64,000 nt of DNA from Syntrophobacteraceae bacterium (GTDB lineage Bacteria > Desulfobacterota > Syntrophobacteria > Syntrophobacterales > Syntrophobacteraceae): positions 266-64,265 of the forward strand of contig JAGPLX010000009.1 in the NCBI GenBank assembly GCA_018053185.1. Direction: 5' to 3'. The translations under genes were made by a program, and so were the position numbers. Shown piece after piece: positions 17,450-64,000 of this stretch; position 1 is the stretch's first letter; each line of letters begins with the position of its first letter. The notes below the pieces were generated by a model. That model saw nothing but the letters and a program-made list of their open reading frames with translations. It was not told where the DNA came from and did no database searches.

Positions 17450-18240
17450 TACATGATTCCTTTATAAAATCCCCCGTCAATATGGATGGACGCACCCGTG
17501 ATGTAACCGGCGCGCTCCGAGGCAAGAAAAGCGACCAGGGCGCCGAACTCCTCGGGGGTCCCCAAACGTCCCATGGGAATCGAGGACTCCCAACGACGGA
17601 TGACGGCCTCGGGGGTCGTGCCTTCCTTTTCCGCCAGATACCGTGCCAGGCTCCTCACTCTTTCGGTCAGGGTATAGCCCGGGCAAACGTTGTTGACCGT
17701 AATGTTGTACGGAGCCATCTCGTTGGACAGGGTCTTCGCCAGGCCGACCACCGCCGATCGCACCGTGTTTGAGAGAATCAGTCCGTCGAGGGGTTGCTTT
17801 ACCGAAATGGACGTCATGTTGATGATTCGCCCCCAGCGTTTTTCGATCATTACCGGAAGTGCTTCCCTTGTCATGAGGATGGTACTCATGAGGTTCAACC
17901 GGACCCCATGGTGCCACAGGTCCTCATCGATCTCCAGGAAGGTCCGGGAAGGCGGACCTCCGGCATTGTTGATCAGGATATCCACGGTGCCGTAGTGCTC
18001 GATGCTTTGACGAACAAAGCCCCTTGCCTGTTCCGCCACGGACACGTCCGTCGGAACTCCGATGATCTCCCCGCCGCAAAGCGCCTTGATTTCCTCGACG
18101 GCCTTGGGGAGTTTGGGATCATCCAGTGCCCCGACGGCAACTTTCGCTCCTTCCCGGGACAGTTCAACGGCAACTGCCTTTCCCAACCCCTGACTGCCCC
18201 CGGCGACGAGGGCAACTTTCCCCTTCAAGCCCAAATCCAT
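17449..18240 (-). CDS. SDR-family oxidoreductase (FabG-like)
   Basis: LKGKVALVAGGSQGLGKAVA (TGxxxGxG) and NNAG are present, with the YxxxK region (APYNITVNNVCPG is family-like). Its stop overlaps the fabH ATG (TAATG). The likely start is ATG 18240, not the tracked 18354. Confidence 0.8.
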   Translation of the reverse strand: MDLGLKGKVALVAGGSQGLGKAVAVELSREGAKVAVGALDDPKLPKAVEEIKALCGGEIIGVPTDVSVAEQARGFVRQSIEHYGTVDILINNAGGPPSRTFLEIDEDLWHHGVRLNLMSTILMTREALPVMIEKRWGRIINMTSISVKQPLDGLILSNTVRSAVVGLAKTLSNEMAPYNITVNNVCPGYTLTERVRSLARYLAEKEGTTPEAVIRRWESSIPMGRLGTPEEFGALVAFLASERAGYITGASIHIDGGFYKGIM

Positions 18241-56604: not shown

Positions 56605-56986
56605 AAGGGAGTCTGGAGCAGATCATAAGCCGGGTTCTGTTCCCTGTCCCCTCGAGGAAACAGGGTGACGATCATTCCTCTAGCCTCACCGTTGCCGATG
56701 AGGTCCAGCAACCTACCCGAGAGCTCGGACGGGCCGCCCTCAAACGCTCTCCTATTTGGTCTTGCACCGGATGGGGCTTGCCTAGCTCCCGATGTCACCA
56801 TCGGGACTGGTGAGCTCTTACCTCACCGTTTCACCCTTACCCCGCTCGAGGCGTGGCGGTTTGCTTTCTGTGGCGCTATCCTCCTCGTCACCGAGACTGG
56901 GCGTTACCCAGCATCCTGCCCTGTGGAGCCCGGACTTTCCTCCCGTTCCACCGACGCGGAACCAGCGATCATCTGCTCTACTCCAA
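56605..56986 (-). ncRNA. rnpB: RNase P RNA, bacterial type A
   Basis: The minus strand reads GGAGUAGAGCAGAU...GGGAGGAAAGUCCGGGCUCCACAGGGCAG...GGUAAGGGUGAAACGGUG...ACAGAACCCGGCUUAUGAUCUGCUCCAGACUCC. The universally conserved GGAAAGUCCGG and ACAGAACCCGGCUUA blocks are present, and the 5' and 3' ends pair as P1. Length is about 380 nt, and a U-run follows. Confidence 0.85.
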
Positions 56987-57844: not shown

Positions 57845-58381
57845 ATGAACGTAAGGGGCGATAATATAGCACTGATTGGATTTCGAACAACAGGGAAGAG
57901 CAGCGTAGGGAGGATTCTTGCCCGCGAGTTGGGAAAAATCTTCGTGGACATGGACGAATTTTTGACCCACTCCTTCGGAACCACCATCGATTGCTGGGTG
58001 CGGCGCCACGGGTGGAAATCCTTTCGGAGGGAGGAATCGGATCTCCTCTTACGACTTGCCCAAATGGACGGAGTGGTGGTGGCTACGGGAGGCGGAGTCG
58101 TTCTGGACGCCACCAACCGAGAGATTCTGAAACGCTCCTTCGAGGTCGTATGGCTCAGGGCTTCACCGGACGCCATCGAATCCCGCATCCTGGCGGATCC
58201 GGCCTCCGCCACGCAGCGCCCTCCTCTTTCCACGCTGCCCCTGCGCGAGGAAATCGAAACCCTGCTTCAGGAACGATCGGCCCTGTATGCGGCCACGGCT
58301 CATGTCTCCCTGGATACGGACACCCTGAGTGAGGAAAGGGTGGCAGAAGAGGTACTCCGTCTTCTCCAGATGGAAAAGTGA
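57845..58381 (+). CDS. aroK: Shikimate kinase
   Basis: NIALIGFRTTGKSSVGRILAREL (P-loop), DMDEF and VVATGGGVV. No clear SD precedes the ATG. Confidence 0.9.
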   Translation: MNVRGDNIALIGFRTTGKSSVGRILARELGKIFVDMDEFLTHSFGTTIDCWVRRHGWKSFRREESDLLLRLAQMDGVVVATGGGVVLDATNREILKRSFEVVWLRASPDAIESRILADPASATQRPPLSTLPLREEIETLLQERSALYAATAHVSLDTDTLSEERVAEEVLRLLQMEK

Positions 58382-58419
58382 GACCGGAGGGGGAACTGCC
58401 ACTGCTCTTCAAGATGACA

Positions 58420-58483
58420 CTCCTAACGAATAAGGATAGATCGTGAGAGCGAAGCGATCCACGATCTATCCTTATTCGTTAGG
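58420..58483 (-). repeat. attC-like site of cassette 1 (array-terminal)
   Basis: Plus strand: TCCTAAC-GAATAAGGATAGATCGTG-[AGAGCGAAGCGATC]-CACGATCTATCCTTATTC-GTTAGGC. The 24-bp stem is perfect (58421-58444 / 58459-58482) with no bulges. Confidence 0.6.
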
Positions 58484-58494
58484 CGCACGATGGA

Positions 58495-59166
58495 TCACTC
58501 CGGCATGAAGGTTCCGACTACGGCCAGGATCAGGAATAGACCTCCCAGCACGATGAGCACAATGTTTGCCGTGCTGTAGCTATCGTTACGCCCTTCCGCG
58601 ATGTCTCCTGCGTACCGCTCATTGACCCGCTGTGCCGCTTGTTGCACCGGCAAGATCGGAATGAACGTCGCGAGACTGATGAGCCACCAGGGATCCGGAA
58701 GGCGCCACGTGATGTTCAGAACCAGATAAAACGTCGCGAGGACTCCCGAACTCCAATCGATCGGCGTTCCCGTTGACAGTGCCAAGGCGCGTATTCTCTT
58801 GAACAAGGAGAACCCCCAGAGTGGCGCGAAGAAGGCTCTCCAAAACGGGCTCAGATTCTCGCCGGAGGCCTGCTTGAGCCGCTTCCAGTTCTGGTAGCAC
58901 CAATAGAGCTCGTAGATGCCGAAGCTGCAGATAGAAAGGACGACGAACTTGTGGGTCGCCACGGGAAACAGCGGCAAGGAGCTGACCCCGGGCGTCGCAG
59001 GCATCTGGGTCTGCTCGGAGTCGGGCGGCTCCGTGGCTCCGGCTGTAGCCTCGCCCGGATGTGCGGGCCCAAGGGCGAAAGCGCCGAGCGGTCGCCCACA
59101 TTGGACACACGTACGGGCCAAGTCGGACACGCTGTGGCCGCAGTCTGGACATGTCCTCAAGGCCAT
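58495..59166 (-). CDS. Cassette 1: zinc-ribbon plus DUF4234-like membrane protein
   Basis: N-terminal CPDCGH...CVQCG, a Pro/Thr linker, then FVVLSICSFGIYELYWCYQNWKRL (the DUF4234-type motif) and further TM helices. The SD is AAGGGGGA. Confidence 0.6.
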   Translation of the reverse strand: MALRTCPDCGHSVSDLARTCVQCGRPLGAFALGPAHPGEATAGATEPPDSEQTQMPATPGVSSLPLFPVATHKFVVLSICSFGIYELYWCYQNWKRLKQASGENLSPFWRAFFAPLWGFSLFKRIRALALSTGTPIDWSSGVLATFYLVLNITWRLPDPWWLISLATFIPILPVQQAAQRVNERYAGDIAEGRNDSYSTANIVLIVLGGLFLILAVVGTFMPE

Positions 59167-59209
59167 TCTTGTTCCCCCTTCATGTGGCTGAAGAAACGCG
59201 CTCTCGTGC

Positions 59210-59270
59210 GCCTAACGCTGGGCATCAGCTGCGCGGCTATGCCGCGTCGGCCTGGATGCCCTTGTTCGAT
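59210..59270 (-). repeat. attC-like site of cassette 2
   Basis: Plus strand: GCCTAAC-gct-GGGCATC-agctg-CGCGGC-tat-GCCGCG-tcggcctg-GATGCCC-tt-GTTCGAT. The extra unpaired bases are on the plus-strand 3' arm. Confidence 0.7.
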
Positions 59271-59279
59271 CATTCATTT

Positions 59280-59810
59280 TCAGAGATTTTTGTGCTCAAA
59301 CCAAACAAACAACCAGATGATTCCAGCCCAGAATACCGGAATTATGAACCAGGTTGAGATGTTCAATAGATCGGCTACACCAATTTTACCGAAGTCCTTC
59401 CAGGCAAGAATCGTGGATTTGAAAAAAGGATAGAGCTCGGCGTAGACAGCCGCCCCTACTACCATGCCTGCAATAGCGAAGACTGCGTGCCAGCGTCCCT
59501 CGCCAAGAGCACCTATGGAGGTTCCCGGACAAAAACCCATTACTGCCCAGCCGCAGCCGAAAAGAGCACCTCCAACCAAGACGGCGCCCAGGTTCATGGA
59601 CTTGTGGCTCAAGGTAATGATTTCGGCGCTGGCGAGAAATTGAATTCCTATCATGCCGACCAGTACGGCAGACAGCATAAACTTGAAGATAGTCATGTCC
59701 TTCAGGAGCATGGCACCGACCTGCTTTTCAAAGCGCAGAACGCGGCCCTTCTGCAGAAGGAACCCGAAGAATATGCCCGTGATCAAGCCAAGTATTTGAT
59801 CTATGTTCAT
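59280..59810 (-). CDS. Cassette 2, gene 2: YeeE/YedE-family (sulfur-transport type) membrane protein, second half-transporter
   Basis: MNIDQILGLITGIFFGFLLQKG..., with a conserved GFCPGT motif and hydrophobic sequence throughout. Its ATG overlaps the stop of the upstream gene (ATGA 59807-59810). Confidence 0.7.
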   Translation of the reverse strand: MNIDQILGLITGIFFGFLLQKGRVLRFEKQVGAMLLKDMTIFKFMLSAVLVGMIGIQFLASAEIITLSHKSMNLGAVLVGGALFGCGWAVMGFCPGTSIGALGEGRWHAVFAIAGMVVGAAVYAELYPFFKSTILAWKDFGKIGVADLLNISTWFIIPVFWAGIIWLFVWFEHKNL

Positions 59811-60349
59811 GATGATATCCTCCTGTACAAAAGTCCGGCAACGATGACCCCGGTACCGAAGAACATGGCCAATGCGATGAAAGAACTGACCGACAACTGC
59901 ATCATGCCACTGAGACCGTGACCACTTGGACAGCCGTCTGCCATGCGGGCACCTATCATGGCCACAATACCTCCCAGAAAGGCTCCTGCGGCTCGTTTTC
60001 CTATTGATGGGCCGAACCGCTCTTGCCAAGTCGGCGGAACACTTTCCAGCTTGAAGCTCCTGTCGGTTTTGGATGAGATCAAGGCCCCGAAGAATATCCC
60101 GATAACGAGCATGAACTGCCAATCCACACGTACTTTTTCCTTGGTGAAGTATTCGTTGGCAGCGACTCTCTCAGGAAAGACCGTCCGTTCAATCAGCCCT
60201 GCGGCACGCACAAAGGTCGTTGATGCGCCGAGATAATTAGTCTTTCCCATCCATTGAGTAGTTGCATACACCGAAACGATAGCCAGCACTCCTAACAACG
60301 CCCCCGCCAGATACGGACTCCAACCACCATCGTCTGTCATCAACTTCAT
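59807..60349 (-). CDS. Cassette 2, gene 1: YeeE/YedE-family membrane protein, first half-transporter
   Basis: SPYLAGALLGVLAIVS..., with the conserved DGCPSGHG motif. A strong SD (AAAGGAGGAG) lies 6 nt before ATG 60349. Confidence 0.7.
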   Translation of the reverse strand: MKLMTDDGGWSPYLAGALLGVLAIVSVYATTQWMGKTNYLGASTTFVRAAGLIERTVFPERVAANEYFTKEKVRVDWQFMLVIGIFFGALISSKTDRSFKLESVPPTWQERFGPSIGKRAAGAFLGGIVAMIGARMADGCPSGHGLSGMMQLSVSSFIALAMFFGTGVIVAGLLYRRISS

Positions 60350-60376
60350 CGCTATCTCCTCCTTTCATGTGCTTGT

Positions 60377-60559
60377 ATCGAACGGGGCGTGCAATAAGCC
60401 GCCGACCGAGCGAAGCGACACCGAAGTGGCAAAGCCACGAGGGGTCGCTTCATTGCGTTGATAGGTGGAGCGCCTTCGGCGCGACACCTGAAACGCAATC
60501 ATTGCACGCCCCGATAGGATGGAGCGCCGAAGGCGGTCCATCCTATCTACAGGTTAGGC
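60377..60559 (-). repeat. attC-like site of cassette 3, apparently interrupted by a 129-bp TIR-bounded insert (60384-60512)
   Basis: Cores are ATCGAAC (60377-83) and GTTAGGC (60553-59). Removing 60384-60512 leaves a 54-bp site: ATCGAAC-GATAGGATGGA-loop-TCCATCCTATC-tacag-GTTAGGC. The insert ends are GGGGCGTGCAAT / ATTGCACGCCCC. Confidence 0.55.
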
Positions 60560-60616
60560 CTCACCCACAGGCGCAATGCATTCACTTGAACAGCCCGGGA
60601 AGCATGAGACCCGCTA

Positions 60617-61231
60617 CTAACCAAAGCGCTGTCTTGATGCCCTTGAGAGTTGAGGTGTAGTCAGGCTGTGGTGGGAGCGGAGGCGGATCCGGTTCAATGG
60701 CGGGTTGTGCGGCGTCCTCGTCAGTGGGGCTACTGGAGATCGTCTGTGGCGCTGTCTCTCGACGCAGCAGCCGTACCGAAAGTACGACGGCCTGCGTTGC
60801 GCTGCCGTGAATGAATAGACGACATCATCTCTTCCGGCGCTTAACAACTGGGCGGAAGCGACTAAAGCCGCTCTGAGGAAAAGCTCCTCGGGGATCGTTT
60901 CAAAGGTGGTTCCCTCTACTTCGACCGTTCGACACTCTGATGCGCCGCAGACGGAGCAACAGGGGCTGCTTCCGACGCTTGCACCGAGCCATTCCTCCAT
61001 CGGTCTCCCCGCAATCCAAATGCGGTTGGATTCCGATGGGTTCGCCTTGAACGATCTCTCATCTATCTCCCTTATCTCGAAAGTTGGCTCAATGCCCAGC
61101 GGCCGGAGGGCCTGTTTGAGTTTTTCGACTGCGCTCTGCATCTCTTGATATGTAGCACTACAGCGATCACATGTCTTGCCCTCGGGGCTCACAAGCCTCT
61201 GCCAAAGGATCGGTAGCGGTTTCATCGACAC
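60617..61231 (-). CDS. Cassette 3: DUF2703-like Cys-motif protein with an atypical ~80-aa basic C-terminal extension
   Basis: The GTG start lies 7 nt after AAGGAGG. EGKTCDRCSATYQEM...LRPLGIEPTFEIREID...SNRIWIAGRPMEEWL...SPCCSVCGASECRTVEVEGTTFETIPEELF resembles the recalled DUF2703 layout. The tail is low-complexity (RRPSYFRYGCCVERQRHRRSP...). Confidence 0.5.
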   Translation of the reverse strand: MSMKPLPILWQRLVSPEGKTCDRCSATYQEMQSAVEKLKQALRPLGIEPTFEIREIDERSFKANPSESNRIWIAGRPMEEWLGASVGSSPCCSVCGASECRTVEVEGTTFETIPEELFLRAALVASAQLLSAGRDDVVYSFTAAQRRPSYFRYGCCVERQRHRRSPVAPLTRTPHNPPLNRIRLRSHHSLTTPQLSRASRQRFG

Positions 61232-61248
61232 GATCTCACCTCCTTGGC

Positions 61249-61320
61249 GTCTAACGCAAAGCTCACCTGCCGCTATGGAGCGCCAGCGGAATAGCGGTCA
61301 GGTGGAGCGCCTTGTTATGC
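61249..61320 (-). repeat. attC-like site of cassette 4
   Basis: Plus strand: GTCTAAC-gcaaa-GCTC-ACCTG-CCGCTAT-[14-nt loop]-ATAGCGG-T-CAGGT-G-GAGC-gcctt-GTTATGC. There are single-base bulges at T61298 and G61304. Confidence 0.75.
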
Positions 61321-61614
61321 CTTCTTTCCCCTCTTTTTCCAATAGTCGGGTTCTCTGTTGAGGTGCATGACAGCGATTATAAATACCTCTTCATCTGTAA
61401 TTTGGTATATGACCCCGTATGGGAAACGATTTGTTAAACATCTTCTGGTATTTGCAGAAAGTGGAGACCAAGCATAAGGAAAGGAAAGAATATTTTGAAT
61501 TGCCAAGTAGACTTCTTTTGCAAATTCCAATCCGAGACCATTTCGACACTCATTATAATAAGCGATAGCATCATTTAACTCCTTTTCGGCATTGGGATGG
61601 AAAGAATAATTCAA
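61315..61614 (-). CDS. Cassette 4: ParE/RelE-family toxin
   Basis: NYSFHPNAEKELNDAIAYY...FPYGVIYQITDEEVFIIAVMHLNREP is the plasmid-stabilisation/ParE pattern. The start is TTG, 5 nt after the antitoxin stop. The stop lies inside the attC core. Confidence 0.8.
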   Translation of the reverse strand: MNYSFHPNAEKELNDAIAYYNECRNGLGLEFAKEVYLAIQNILSFPYAWSPLSANTRRCLTNRFPYGVIYQITDEEVFIIAVMHLNREPDYWKKRGKKA

Positions 61615-61619
61615 GAACT

Positions 61620-61838
61620 TTACCTGCCAAGTATTTTTTTAAATACCTTATCGCCTGGTATCGTTTTTACTTTACCACTTTTTATTTCTTCAACCCTCTT
61701 TTCTGCTTCCGCTGCCCATAATTCGTCTATTTCTTTCTGGAGGGGATGAATACTTCGGAGAAGTTTATCTATAAGTTGCGCTCTTATCTCGACTGGTAGC
61801 GAAACTGCTTCGTCAAAAAGTTCGTGGGTTTTTATCAT
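61620..61838 (-). CDS. Cassette 4: addiction-module antitoxin (TIGR02574-like)
   Basis: LPVEIRAQLIDKLLRSI......IDELWAAEAEKRVEEIKSGKVKTIPGDKVF matches the recalled addiction module component family. GGAGG precedes the ATG, and the gene lies directly upstream of the toxin. Confidence 0.7.
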   Translation of the reverse strand: MIKTHELFDEAVSLPVEIRAQLIDKLLRSIHPLQKEIDELWAAEAEKRVEEIKSGKVKTIPGDKVFKKILGR

Positions 61839-61923
61839 GTTTACCTCCGCATAAGAGCATAAGATATTAGTTTTAGTTTAGTATACCATGTTTCGCCGAT
61901 TGGAAATGTATCTTTTTTGCCTG

Positions 61924-61988
61924 GCATAACGAGTTGGCGTTAACGCGCGGGCGCGCCAGCGCCCGTCGCGTTCAACGCCTTGTTAGGC
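61924..61988 (-). repeat. attC-like site of cassette 5
   Basis: Plus strand: GCATAAC-gagtt-GGCGTT-AACGCG-CGGGC-loop-GCCCG-T-CGCGTT-C-AACGCC-tt-GTTAGGC. The bulges are T61966 and C61973. Confidence 0.75.
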
Positions 61989-62362
61989 TTCCGCTTGCGG
62001 ATGTATGAGAGCGTTCGGTCCATTTCCTCCAGCAGACGAGTGGTGTTTCCTTGGGGCTGGCTCCATGCTTCGCGCAGACCAGACAGAATTCTGTAGGTCA
62101 CCTCGAAGTACCGAGGAAAGTGCCTGAGTTCGAACGCAACAGCCACTTGTCGGTCCACCCATGTGGCGCCCGACTTCTCATCGGGCACGACGAGTTCCTT
62201 GATGAGGCGATGGTACGCTTCGAACTCACGGGTTTGGCGGTCTTGCCGCCTCCCCAGGAAGAACTGGATGGCAGACCAGATGAAAGTCGTCGATGCGCCC
62301 AGAACTCCCAGGGCGGCCAGATGATTGCCAATCCACTCAAGCATGTGAGCTAGCTCGGCCAT
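61940..62362 (-). CDS. Cassette 5: hypothetical protein with N-terminal TM helix
   Basis: A 140-aa ORF with an SD (GGAGA). The hydrophobic N-terminus reads LAALGVLGASTTFIWSAIQFFLG. The 3' end runs into the attC. No family was recognised. Confidence 0.5.
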   Translation of the reverse strand: MAELAHMLEWIGNHLAALGVLGASTTFIWSAIQFFLGRRQDRQTREFEAYHRLIKELVVPDEKSGATWVDRQVAVAFELRHFPRYFEVTYRILSGLREAWSQPQGNTTRLLEEMDRTLSYIRKRKPNKALNATGAGAPAR

Positions 62363-62395
62363 GTGGTCTCCAATCGTCTCAAGCTGGTTCGGTAA

Positions 62396-62473
62396 GCCTA
62401 ACGCCCAGGTTCAACCGCAGCCCTGACGACGCGAAGCGGCGGCAGGGCCGTCGGGTGGAACCTGTTGTTAGCA
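62396..62473 (-). repeat. attC-like site of cassette 6
   Basis: Plus strand: GCCTAAC-gcc-CAGGTTCAACC-gc-AGCCCTG-[acgacGCGAAGCGgcgg]-CAGGGC-cgtc-GGGTGGAACCTG-tt-GTTAGCA. There is a G62457 mismatch and an unpaired T62451. Confidence 0.7.
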
Positions 62474-62474
62474 C

Positions 62475-63008
62475 TCATTCCAGCGGAATGATGATGTCCG
62501 TGAGCTTCCAGCCAATGCCTCGCCTACGAAGGACAAACTTTCCTTCTCCGCCGTTGTCCCCCTTGACCTTTACAACAAATTTGTCAAGAGACTCGTAGGA
62601 CATCGACGCATCCGACAGCGGCTTGCGCCCTGAGTTACCGGCACTACCGTCACCTTGTTCCGCTCCCGGCCGCGGCTTCTCACCGGCCATTAACTGAGTG
62701 ATCCCTGCCGGAGTGACGTAGGCATCCACCATCTTGTCGACCATCACACCTGCGAAGGCCGCGCCCAACGCTGCAAATGGGTTGTTCTTCATATCCTCAT
62801 CTTCGGCTATTTTCTTCGCGAACATGGCATTCATCTGGTCCTTGAGGCTCTGACGAACGCTAGGAAATTCTATGTGCTCGGAAAGGGCTTCGCCGTCATG
62901 GTTTTCCGCCGCAGATTTCATTCGATAAACGGTGATGTAGGGTGCGGCCAATACGTAGACGGCAAAAAGTCCCGCTGCTACACCTAGAACCACTTTCCCC
63001 TTGCTCAT
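62475..63008 (-). CDS. Cassette 6: DUF2939-like protein (N-terminal anchor)
   Basis: VVLGVAAGLFAVYVLAAPYITVYRMKSAAENHDGEALSEHIEFPSVRQSLKDQM resembles the recalled DUF2939 N-terminal pattern. The stop lies 1 nt from the attC core. Confidence 0.55.
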   Translation of the reverse strand: MSKGKVVLGVAAGLFAVYVLAAPYITVYRMKSAAENHDGEALSEHIEFPSVRQSLKDQMNAMFAKKIAEDEDMKNNPFAALGAAFAGVMVDKMVDAYVTPAGITQLMAGEKPRPGAEQGDGSAGNSGRKPLSDASMSYESLDKFVVKVKGDNGGEGKFVLRRRGIGWKLTDIIIPLE

Positions 63009-63024
63009 GTTTCCCCCTGTTAAG

Positions 63025-63089
63025 TGCTAACGCCGAAATCAGCGGCGGGTGTAAGACGTCCGCTGGATTGTTTCGTTGGGCGGTTAGCT
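63025..63089 (-). repeat. attC-like site of cassette 7 (two overlapping candidate distal cores)
   Basis: Plus strand: TGCTAAC-gcc-GAAA-TCAGCGG-loop-CCGCTGG-attg-TTTC-GTTGGGC(63075-81)-g-GTTAGCT(63083-89). GTTGGGC is the exact complement partner of the cassette start TTGGGC at 63663. Confidence 0.65.
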
Positions 63090-63118
63090 TTGCTACACAT
63101 CAATATGGCATACTTGAT

Positions 63119-63526
63119 CTACTCTTTTTGGATGTCGATACTCATTCCACCCAGGAGCTTCCATTGACCCTTATCTCTAGTCCATGTATGTGTGATCCGC
63201 GATGACTGCGCCTTTATGGTTCCGGAAGCATCTGGGCAATCCACATGCAGAATATATTGGGTCAATACCGTATCTCCGGCCTGCTGCAAACCGACACGTT
63301 TAATCCGTATGGAACATGCCGTAGGCTGAGGAATCAGCCTCTTCATGAACTGTGCACTTTCTTCTCTGCCGATAGGCTTGGGCAGGTTGCCGGGCCATCC
63401 CAGAAACTGCTGGTGTACTAGAGAGAGCACCCCTTCATAGTTGGCTTTGTAAAGATTGGTGAAGTAAGCCTCTTCCAATTTCCATATCTCTTCCTCCACG
63501 GTGTTCCCCCAATTTTGTACGCCCAT
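63119..63526 (-). CDS. Cassette 7: SnoaL-like/DUF4440 (NTF2-fold) protein
   Basis: EEEIWKLEEAYFTNLYKANYEGVLSLVHQQFLGWPG...THTWTRDKGQWKLLGGMS is the typical NTF2-like/DUF4440 pattern. The start may instead be GTG 63499, which follows GGGGGA. Confidence 0.55.
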   Translation of the reverse strand: MGVQNWGNTVEEEIWKLEEAYFTNLYKANYEGVLSLVHQQFLGWPGNLPKPIGREESAQFMKRLIPQPTACSIRIKRVGLQQAGDTVLTQYILHVDCPDASGTIKAQSSRITHTWTRDKGQWKLLGGMSIDIQKE

Positions 63527-63538
63527 TGCAAGGGATGG

Positions 63539-63640
63539 CTAACACAACCCGAAAATAAGGGCCAGAACTACAAGTGATCCTGATATCCCTGCGACAGGCG
63601 AAGTGAGATTCATCTTCATTGCGATTTGCCAAGTAGCCAT
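63539..63640 (-). CDS. Cassette 7 (leader position): 33-aa hydrophobic micro-ORF
   Basis: ATG 63640 lies 4 nt after AGGAGA. The peptide is MATWQIAMKMNLTSPVAGISGSLVVLALIFGLC, a single TM-like helix. Support comes only from the SD and its position, so this is tentative. Confidence 0.3.
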   Translation of the reverse strand: MATWQIAMKMNLTSPVAGISGSLVVLALIFGLC

Positions 63641-63657
63641 TCTGTCTCCTAATAATT

Positions 63658-63735
63658 GCCCAACGACCTGCGCTTCAGCCGCACGCGGAGCGAGCGAAGC
63701 GAGCGGAGCGTGTCGGCTGGATGCGCGTGTTAGGC
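63658..63735 (-). repeat. attC-like site of cassette 8
   Basis: Plus strand: GCCCAAC-gacct-GCGC-tt-CAGCCG-CAC-GC-[loop with GCGAAGCG]-GC-GTG-T-CGGCTG-gat-GCGC-gt-GTTAGGC. The bulged base is T63713. Confidence 0.7.
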
Positions 63736-63767
63736 GCAACCCAGCTCTATTAACCGCCATACTGCTT

Positions 63768-64000
63768 TTACAACTCATCGTCCCCTTCAAAGCGATTCTC
63801 AAGGCCGGGCAGATTTCCCCAGCCGAGTTCCCAAGTGTTGACGTCCTTATTCCTGTTATCAATTACACGTGATTTTACAACCTTTCCCTTCTCGATCTTC
63901 ACGTGAATTTCTTGTTCATAGACAGAGCCAAAGCCCATATGTACGTAGTGTAGAACTTCTCCCTGGGGTATTTGGATAACACCAGTGAACCAGTCGGCAG
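63768..64000 (-). CDS. Cassette 8: hypothetical protein, 5' end beyond the window
   Basis: The minus frame is open from the window edge to TAA at 63770-63768. It reads ...ADWFTGVIQIPQGEVLHYVHMGFGSVYEQEIHVKIEKGKVVKSRVIDNRNKDVNTWELGWGNLPGLENRFEGDDEL. The stop lies 33 nt before the attC. It is not in the supplied track because no start codon is in the window. Confidence 0.45.
   Translation of the reverse strand, partial: ADWFTGVIQIPQGEVLHYVHMGFGSVYEQEIHVKIEKGKVVKSRVIDNRNKDVNTWELGWGNLPGLENRFEGDDEL

Follow-up and report, generated by a model that had tools for sequence, protein, structure and literature searches.

The closest described systems to the locus reported here are the cassette arrays of class 1 integrons, the sedentary superintegrons of Vibrio and attC-site clusters that have no integron integrase (CALINs), and integrons are known in Desulfobacterota (PMC9668308). 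The locus lies in a 64,000-nucleotide stretch of contig JAGPLX010000009.1 from a Syntrophobacteraceae bacterium (assembly GCA_018053185.1), the whole of which is referred to below as the window. Its last part, positions 58421–64000, adjoins the shikimate kinase gene aroK and is, with high confidence, the promoter-distal end of an integron-type cassette array on the chromosome of this uncultured bacterium. A cassette array beside aroK had been proposed from the letters of the DNA by a first, sequence-only reading, and the proposal is borne out by the anatomy and covariation of the attC sites, their recognition by a class 1 model, the own-core footprint of the cassettes, cassette anatomy and the absence of the array from relatives. 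Such an array is a well-known kind of element, and tools of the IntegronFinder type would call a locus like this one routinely.

Class 1 arrays, exemplified by plasmid NZ_CP061834.1 and by attCaadA7, agree with the sites in the window in their R and L boxes, in having bulges at position 16 and position 23, and in their unpaired spacer and variable loop. The two sets of sites recognize one another reciprocally in covariance-model searches, are alike heterogeneous in attC and have the same crossover point, G|TT. Unlike the class 1 arrays, the array in the window belongs to the chromosome of an anaerobic Syntrophobacteraceae metagenome-assembled genome (MAG), carries no resistance genes and contains two atypical sites, and no intI1, attI1 or 3′-conserved segment was seen in the window. 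The sedentary superintegron of the Vibrio type is likewise chromosomal, with many cassettes of unknown function and a toxin–antitoxin cassette that has a promoter-like leader. However, the attC sites of the window are only ∼60% identical whereas those of the Vibrio type are more alike (PMC4889954), no integrase was seen in the window, and the array is missing from relatives at 90% AroK identity and hence is not an ancient fixed element. CALINs (PMC4889954), and the attG insertions (bioRxiv 10.1101/2022.09.11.507474), resemble it in having at least two attC sites, no intI on the sequence at hand and cargo other than resistance genes; a further likeness is the debris of insertion sequences (IS) and introns found nearby in L040, a contig from a probable conspecific. 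In contrast to CALINs, the window array is larger than most, has one side unsequenced and has a junction unlike that of a simple GWT insertion.

Layout of the array and anatomy of its sites

The array comprises seven complete cassettes and one partial cassette, with eight palindromic sites between them that have AAC...GTT cores. All of its open reading frames (ORFs) are on the minus strand, as had been claimed and as the ORF list confirms. The complete cassettes are 472–1167 nt long and share a single orientation, and their ORFs are short, co-oriented and mostly promoterless, each followed by an attC site. Leaders of 22–49 nt precede the array ORFs, the toxin–antitoxin cassette alone having a leader of 91 nt, and in five of the seven complete cassettes the stop codon falls inside attC or within 10 nt of it. 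The GC content of the cassettes spreads from 40% to 59%, which suggests that they may be of mixed origin.

On the top (minus, coding) strand, every site presents an RYYYAAC-like core first and a GTTRRRY-like core last. The sequence-only reading had listed eight pairs of such cores, and all eight sites are present at those places, the first pair alone being displaced by one nucleotide (58421–58427 and 58478–58484, not starting at 58420 and 58477). Its RYYYAAC...GTTRRRY consensus holds throughout for AAC and GTT, which are invariant in 8/8 sites; the four degenerate positions per side agree with RYYY/RRRY in most sites and deviate in some, for instance as TCCTAAC in attC1 and GTTCGAT in attC2.

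Canonical anatomy is found in six of the eight sites, all on the minus strand: attC2 (59210–59270; R″ ATCGAAC, R′ GTTAGGC), attC4 (61249–61320; R″ GCATAAC, R′ GTTAGAC), attC5 (61924–61988; R″ GCCTAAC, R′ GTTATGC), attC6 (62396–62473; R″ TGCTAAC, R′ GTTAGGC), attC7, the shortest at 57 nt (63025–63081; R″ GCCCAAC, R′ GTTAGCA), and attC8 (63658–63735; R″ GCCTAAC, R′ GTTGGGC). On the plus strand each of these six opens with 5′-RYYYAAC and a short spacer that is unpaired; an imperfect stem and a variable loop follow, and after them come T, 6 paired nt, G, 8 nt and GTTRRRY-3′. Because of this T-N6-G-N8-R″ spacing, the extrahelical bases, counted from the R″ end, stand at positions 16 and 23, which are the positions of the extrahelical bases G16 and T23 in attCaadA7 (Nivina et al., PMC5027507). 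The distance from R″ to the first bulge is constant in 6/6 sites, and the bulged base at position 16 is C, not G, in attC5, a site of otherwise canonical geometry.

The fold is kept while the sequence varies, the structural conservation seen in attC sites. Mean pairwise identity among the sites is 60%, and compensatory changes occur in 12 of the 16 stem pairs of the six-site alignment. In that alignment 85% of cells are paired, compared with 30–40% when the partner columns are slid, and the observed covariation score was reached by none of 500 column shuffles.

Two covariance models were used for recognition. Model R1 was built from the six canonical sites and the whole window was scanned with filters off, while R2 was built from four class 1 attC sites only, those of arr-2, cmlA5, aac(6′)-Ib-cr and blaOXA-1 on the K. 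pneumoniae plasmid NZ_CP061834.1. Across the 64 kb, R2 returned exactly the six canonical sites with exact ends (E 9e-11 to 2e-6), the next best match having E 0.4. The individual scores were 52.1 bits with R1 and 33 bits (E 2e-6) with R2 for attC2, 67.7 and 49.3 bits (E 9e-11) for attC4, 68 and 43.4 bits (E 3e-9) for attC5, 67.1 and 33.3 bits (E 2e-6) for attC6, 51.5 and 38.2 bits (E 8e-8) for attC7, and 62.9 and 39.7 bits (E 3e-8) for attC8. With R2 as a surrogate for a general attC model, the prediction that the palindromes would be recognized as attC sites succeeds for these six and misses attC1 and attC3. Apart from its training sites, R1 gave just two matches, one to attC1 (19 bits, E 0.02) and one to a portion of attC3 (19.9 bits, E 0.012), with nothing better than E 5 on the plus strand of the remaining 58 kb. 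Neither model found a comparable site in window positions 1–58400; palindromes dispersed as repeats, which the sequence-only reading had named as an observation that would count against it, were not seen there. In the reverse direction, R1 identified the attC sites after arr-2, cmlA5, aac(6′)-Ib-cr and blaOXA-1 on NZ_CP061834.1 (25–44 bits). Every match lay on the opposite strand to its gene, which is also the arrangement in the window, and R1 rightly gave no match at the aadA1 attC, which is truncated in that plasmid. Rfam at a permissive threshold gave nothing real in the array. Plain pattern searches were also tried and set aside, since neither a strict regular-expression scan for RYYYAAC...GTTRRRY nor a looser scan for complementary cores was discriminating, the latter giving 128 pairs across the window.

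Footprint of circular cassettes

With the crossover set at G|TT, the six bases with which each of the seven complete cassettes opens were compared with the cassette's own R″. The complement of the own R″ is matched at 6/6 bases in six cassettes and at 5/6 in one (cassette 3), while the core of the physically neighbouring site matches the cassette start at only 3–5 of 6 bases. An equal score was obtained with only 6 of the 5040 permutations of the cores, all of them mere swaps of the three identical GCCTAAC cores. This was the observation on which the sequence-only reading placed most weight, and it is reproduced exactly. Cassettes would match their own cores in this manner because each was once a circle that was inserted by the integrase IntI with a cut at G|TT. 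Every test that was run supports the wider claim, in which an integron integrase inserted circular cassettes beside ordinary housekeeping genes.

We propose that each unit consists of one or two mostly promoterless ORFs with an attC site at the 3′ end, and that the units, formerly circular, would have been inserted one by one. We infer that IntI was the agent and that it cut the bottom strand of the folded attC, corresponding to the plus strand of the window, between A and C of 5′-AAC-3′ (G|TT on the top strand). Since the top strand is the minus strand, attI, the cassette promoter Pc and intI would lie beyond position 64000, if they are still present. The cassettes of the window would then be at least 5.6 kb from any Pc and are probably silent, with the likely exception of the toxin–antitoxin cassette, which has its own promoter-like leader and would stabilize the array.

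The border with aroK

The gene aroK (57845–58381, plus strand; PF01202 on identical products) is the last conserved chromosomal gene of the window, is convergent with the array and forms its left border. The gene order cysS–ispF–ispD–DUF374–aroK is kept in relatives at 90% (L030–L032) and 75% (L033–L038) AroK identity. In these relatives aroK is followed by a leader of ∼270–330 nt and then by cbiM–cbiQ–cbiO–era, with no array and no covariance-model match. The window is 92% identical to L030 in DNA sequence up to ∼58419, two bases before attC1, and cbiMQO, era and rnc are not in the window. The direct aroK–cbiM order of the relatives, the end of homology in the window and the lack of cbiMQO there together indicate that the array lies in DNA inserted between aroK and cbiM. 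As judged from these alignments, the array is a lineage-specific insertion, and the comparison of aroK flanks to which the sequence-only reading had pointed agrees with that reading, the array being absent at both levels of AroK identity.

The far side of such an insertion may be represented by L040 (GCA_020049655.1, JAHZTS010001869.1), a contig 94% identical to L030 that covers the cbiM side of a gap of this kind and, from its sequence, may come from the species of the window. Positions 1–1073 of L040, upstream of the cbiM leader, contain 210 nt of unassigned sequence and a group II intron of which the 3′ part is present (GIIM ORF 447–761; Rfam Intron_gpII 774–852), the intron being cut at ∼240 by an IS-like transposase N-terminus. 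Group IIC introns target attC sites. No intI and no attC was found in L040 upstream of the cbiM leader. The window aligns to L030 up to L030 position 1614 and L040 aligns from L030 position 1600.

The motif CTTCAA(G/A)ATGACA occurs at window positions 58406–58418, at 1076–1088 in L040 and at 1600–1614 in L030, and would form a ∼15-nt direct repeat flanking the insert if the window and L040 represent one genome. This repeat is possibly an att-like duplication left by an integrative element.

Two atypical sites

The terminal, promoter-distal site attC1 (58421–58484, minus strand; top-strand R″ GCCTAAC and R′ GTTAGGA) forms a perfect palindrome of 24 bp around a 14-nt loop. No perfect inverted repeat in the window is longer, and the site has no bulged bases and no unpaired spacer. 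Its fold has an energy of −28.8 kcal/mol (z −13). R2 scores it at no more than 10.6 bits (E 2.2). Since the start of its cassette agrees with its R″ at 6/6 bases, attC1 is probably a real, though degenerate, site. Unpaired features of attC sites set the choice of strand (Nivina et al., PMC5027507), and attC1, which has none, should therefore not discriminate between strands. A different origin for its left arm, as ancestral sequence of the cbiM promoter, is conceivable on the basis of TGACA-N15-GGATAG in common with L030 and CTCC(C)T(G/A)AC in common with L033, but the matches are short and involve different relatives.

The contig L002 (SRR11088442) ends in 31 nt in which the aroK flank and the left arm of attC1 are joined to the reverse complement of the loop (window 58446–58459). 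This inverted-loop 31-mer is absent from both strands of the window. The opposite orientation of the loop in L002 means either that the loop truly flips between the arms or that the library introduced an artefact.

The second atypical site, attC3 (60377–60559, minus strand), is a 183-nt composite junction, and its cassette is the one with the 5/6 own-core match. On the plus strand, R′ (ATCGAAC) is directly followed by a long stem (60384–60395 with 60501–60512) around two hairpins, after which come an extra 35-nt hairpin (60513–60547), TACAG and then R″ (GTTAGGC). The fold has an energy of −67.5 kcal/mol (z −10.6), and a 14-mer, AGGTGGAGCGCCTT, is common to attC3 and attC4. The R1 match to attC3 is limited to 60377–60466 and R2 gave no match. 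More than one site appears to have been fused in this junction, or to have left a remnant there, and to judge from its sequence the junction may be inactive. Its interpretation as two complete attC sites was rejected, since it contains no internal GTTRRRY/RYYYAAC pair and only the weak partial match at 60377–60466.

Origin of the array

Several observations weigh against reading the region as an integron-type array. No integron integrase was found in the 64 kb of the window by tblastn with IntI1, the query being 100% identical over residues 1–266 to the truncated intI1 of L029, the class 1 locus of the plasmid. The source contig is 64,968 nt long and extends at most 968 nt past the window, of which ∼256 nt are taken by the last ORF, so no complete intI is possible further along the same contig. 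Two of the eight sites, attC1 and attC3, are non-canonical, fail R2 and are without bulges and spacer. The training sites of R2 were picked and aligned by R1, which makes the test reciprocal and not fully independent. Lastly, the only same-species fragment that covers cassettes, the Logan contig L041 (ERR14964777), is identical to the window, and no turnover of cassettes between strains was observed.

Whether the array belongs to a complete chromosomal integron as its distal part, with intI, attI and Pc beyond the end of the contig, as the sequence-only reading had it, is in our judgement an evenly balanced question. The orientation of the sites puts attI beyond position 64000, a geometry that holds in the class 1 locus L029, where the intI1 remnant is upstream of the first cassette. 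A set of at least eight sites that includes a toxin–antitoxin cassette is typical of chromosomal integrons (PMC4889954, PMC9668308), and Desulfobacterota were already known to have integrons. Against this reading, the short remainder of the contig beyond its last ORF means that it rests on an assumption about DNA further away. An exact 60-mer from the end of the window, with which the sequence might have been extended, was absent from the metagenomes of the Joint Genome Institute (JGI). Moreover, a sedentary chromosomal integron occupies the same locus across a lineage and is usually homogeneous in attC (PMC4889954), but here the sites are only ∼60% identical and relatives at 90% and 75% AroK identity, the closest of which has 92% DNA identity to the window, lack the array, so it is not an old sedentary element.

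A serious possibility, to which we give somewhat less than even weight, is that the array is an integrase-less CALIN. It would have arisen either by insertion in trans at a secondary attG/GWT site downstream of aroK with later attC × attC additions, or by separation from its integrase through mobile elements. This reading refines the explanation as an integron array and does not contradict it. It agrees with the lack of intI in 64 kb and with the heterogeneity of the attC sites at 60% identity. CALINs are very common and are what is usually found in MAGs (PMC4889954, PMC9668308), and IntI inserts cassettes at GWT sites in genomes (bioRxiv 10.1101/2022.09.11.507474). Only 7 nt separate the terminal R′ (top strand G|TTAGGA) from the end of homology to relatives, and on the cbiM side, as seen in L040, there are an IS-like fragment and a group II intron that is truncated, again with no intI. 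However, at least eight sites is large for a CALIN, 83% of which have fewer than six (PMC4889954), L040 is only a probable conspecific of the window genome, and the promoter-proximal end of the array is outside the sequence seen. In addition, the sequence TTAGGAG distal to the crossover is absent from the intergenic sequence of the closest relative, L030, which does not agree with a simple insertion at an attG site in a target resembling L030.

A route to the aroK side without a classical attI is improbable, although it would accommodate both the symmetry of attC1 and the repeat at the border. The array would then have been built at, or delivered to, a non-classical genomic site with attC1, whose two strands have the same fold and whose loop occurs in either orientation among metagenomes, as a strand-indifferent anchor or entry point, or it would have been brought by an integrative element flanked by the CTTCAA(G/A)ATGACA repeat.

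We consider it very unlikely that the junction of aroK with the array is an assembly chimera formed at the palindrome of attC1. Four independent aroK contigs (L001–L003 and L039) all end at or inside attC1, and the loop in L002 has the opposite orientation, as a chimera might produce. However, L003, also from ERR14964777, joins aroK to the left arm of attC1 and 8 nt of its loop, while L041, which is 100% identical to window positions 58443–59442, holds the end of cassette 2, attC2, cassette 1 and, of attC1, the loop and right arm. The two contigs overlap consistently and are 100% identical to the window, and the MAG contig itself spans the junction. The agreement of L003 and L041 makes a chimera confined to a single assembly unlikely.

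Finally, the notion that the palindromes are repeats of the repetitive extragenic palindromic (REP) or bacterial interspersed mosaic element (BIME) kind, or terminators, between ordinary genes has next to no credibility: intergenic palindromes do follow convergent or co-directional genes, and attC1 alone could pass for a terminator-like hairpin common to aroK, but the sites form no sequence family and have only a common fold with compensatory changes, there are no copies in the other 58 kb of the window, the class 1 model R2 recognizes them, the own-core rule is left unexplained, no T run follows any site and the sole terminator-like match in a site (63043–63065, attC7) is on the strand opposite the genes, so that the view is already refuted as far as the six canonical sites are concerned.

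No paper that connects Syntrophobacter with integrons or attC sites came up in full-text searches, and the locus adds a documented cassette array for the Syntrophobacteraceae, syntrophic anaerobes, in which class 1-type attC geometry is unchanged in a distant lineage. The understanding of integrons is not altered by it. The symmetrical attC1, the composite attC3 and the recent aroK–cbiM insertion are unusual details that are worth noting and leave the picture as it was. The main practical value lies in a call made by eye from the sequence having proved correct. Small leads on the roles of cassettes in anaerobic communities are offered by the cargo, namely a split YeeE/YedE transporter, a DUF2939 defence candidate and a ParE pair.

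Cassette cargo and neighbouring features

The cargo, which includes a ParE/antitoxin pair, a number of DUFs and a defence candidate from PADLOC, is typical of cassettes. The statement that most of it is uncharacterized was roughly right: seven of the nine complete ORFs reach a Pfam cut-off, which goes against it, but the families are mostly DUFs. The 223-aa ORF has only sub-threshold matches, and neither the 140-aa ORF nor the cut-off last ORF has any Pfam match. Exact look-ups of five cassette proteins and of the full products of the last ORF, P0001 and P0013, returned no record. All cassettes described below are on the minus strand.

Cassette 4 (61255–61929; 675 nt, 40% GC) encodes an antitoxin (61620–61838; Unstab_antitox/TIGR02574) and a ParE-family toxin (61315–61614). 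It is the AT-rich cassette of the array (GC 0.37–0.45) and the only one with a long leader, of 91 nt, in which an extended −10-like motif, TGGTATACT (plus-strand coordinates 61870–61878), was read by eye and would be promoter-like; a promoter scan did not return it. Toxin–antitoxin cassettes carry their own promoters and stabilize arrays (PMC4889954, PMC9668308).

Cassette 2 (59216–60382; 1167 nt) contains two overlapping ORFs, 59807–60349 (180 aa) and 59280–59810 (176 aa), that match PF04143 (1e-23 and 5e-19) and are predicted to form a split YeeE/YedE (TsuA-like) transporter of sulphur compounds, their NCBIfam TsuA/YedE matches being below the curated cut-off. The pair is 53% identical to a chromosomal pair in L033. 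That split YeeE/YedE pair is located at 17645–18696 in L033, between a radical-SAM operon and rnc, and is found also in L034–L037, which like L033 have 75% AroK identity; L030 and L040 lack it at this position, and it has no flanking attC sites.

Cassette 6 (62402–63030; 629 nt) carries a 177-aa DUF2939 ORF (62475–63008; PF11159, 2.7e-32) whose product matches full length the PADLOC phage-defence candidate PDC-S55 (PDLC05037, 4.6e-57), itself a candidate only. Cassette 1 (58427–59215; 789 nt, 59% GC) has a 223-aa ORF (58495–59166) with weak, sub-threshold zinc-ribbon and DUF4234 matches, and cassette 5 (61930–62401; 472 nt) has a 140-aa ORF (61940–62362) without a family match, its 3′ end overlapping attC5.

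Two cassettes contain reading frames that appear to be interrupted. In cassette 3 (60383–61254; 872 nt) the DUF2703 ORF (60617–61231) matches PF10865 (1.9e-37) over residues 6–122 only; the Pfam domain ends at residue 122 of 204 and the remainder is Arg/Pro-rich. Near this ORF, another frame at 60585–60650 on the minus strand reads as a membrane-helix-like ...IKTALWLVAGLMLPGLFK*. The 3′ part of the DUF2703 ORF is probably frameshifted (region 60585–60860). Cassette 7 (63031–63663; 633 nt) has a SnoaL_3/DUF4440 ORF (63119–63526) and, in frame with it at 63539–63640 on the minus strand, a 33-codon ORF resembling a signal peptide with a lipobox (...LIFGLC), which starts at 63640 and ends in TAG at 63539–63541. 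The two could represent a lipoprotein gene with a nonsense mutation, a sequencing error or two separate ORFs.

Cassette 8 (63664–64000) is cut by the end of the window. Its ORF starts beyond the window and stops at 63768, and the full product of 162 aa (MBP8645188.1, KBH99_03605) has no family match, and its family has no annotation. A scan of genome contigs gave 22 homologues with 49–78% identity and a conserved HYVHMGFGSVYEQE motif, distributed patchily (L004–L025) over Chloroflexota, Fibrobacter, Cyanobacteria, Thermotogota, Polyangiaceae, Desulfocapsaceae, Gammaproteobacteria and others. None of the 22 loci has a flanking attC (best R1 E 0.26) or intI, so they give no evidence of this gene travelling as a cassette elsewhere.

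A scan for aroK in JGI metagenomes returned only relatives at 37%. The conserved leader upstream of cbiM (1613–1889 in L030, 10532–10861 in L033 and 1089–1364 in L040) has no Rfam match even at a permissive threshold and may regulate the cobalt/nickel transporter operon as a leader not described before. In the conserved part of the window, a class A RNase P RNA (56611–56984, minus strand; 324.6 bits) lies between ispD and the DUF374 gene, a position that is kept in L030.

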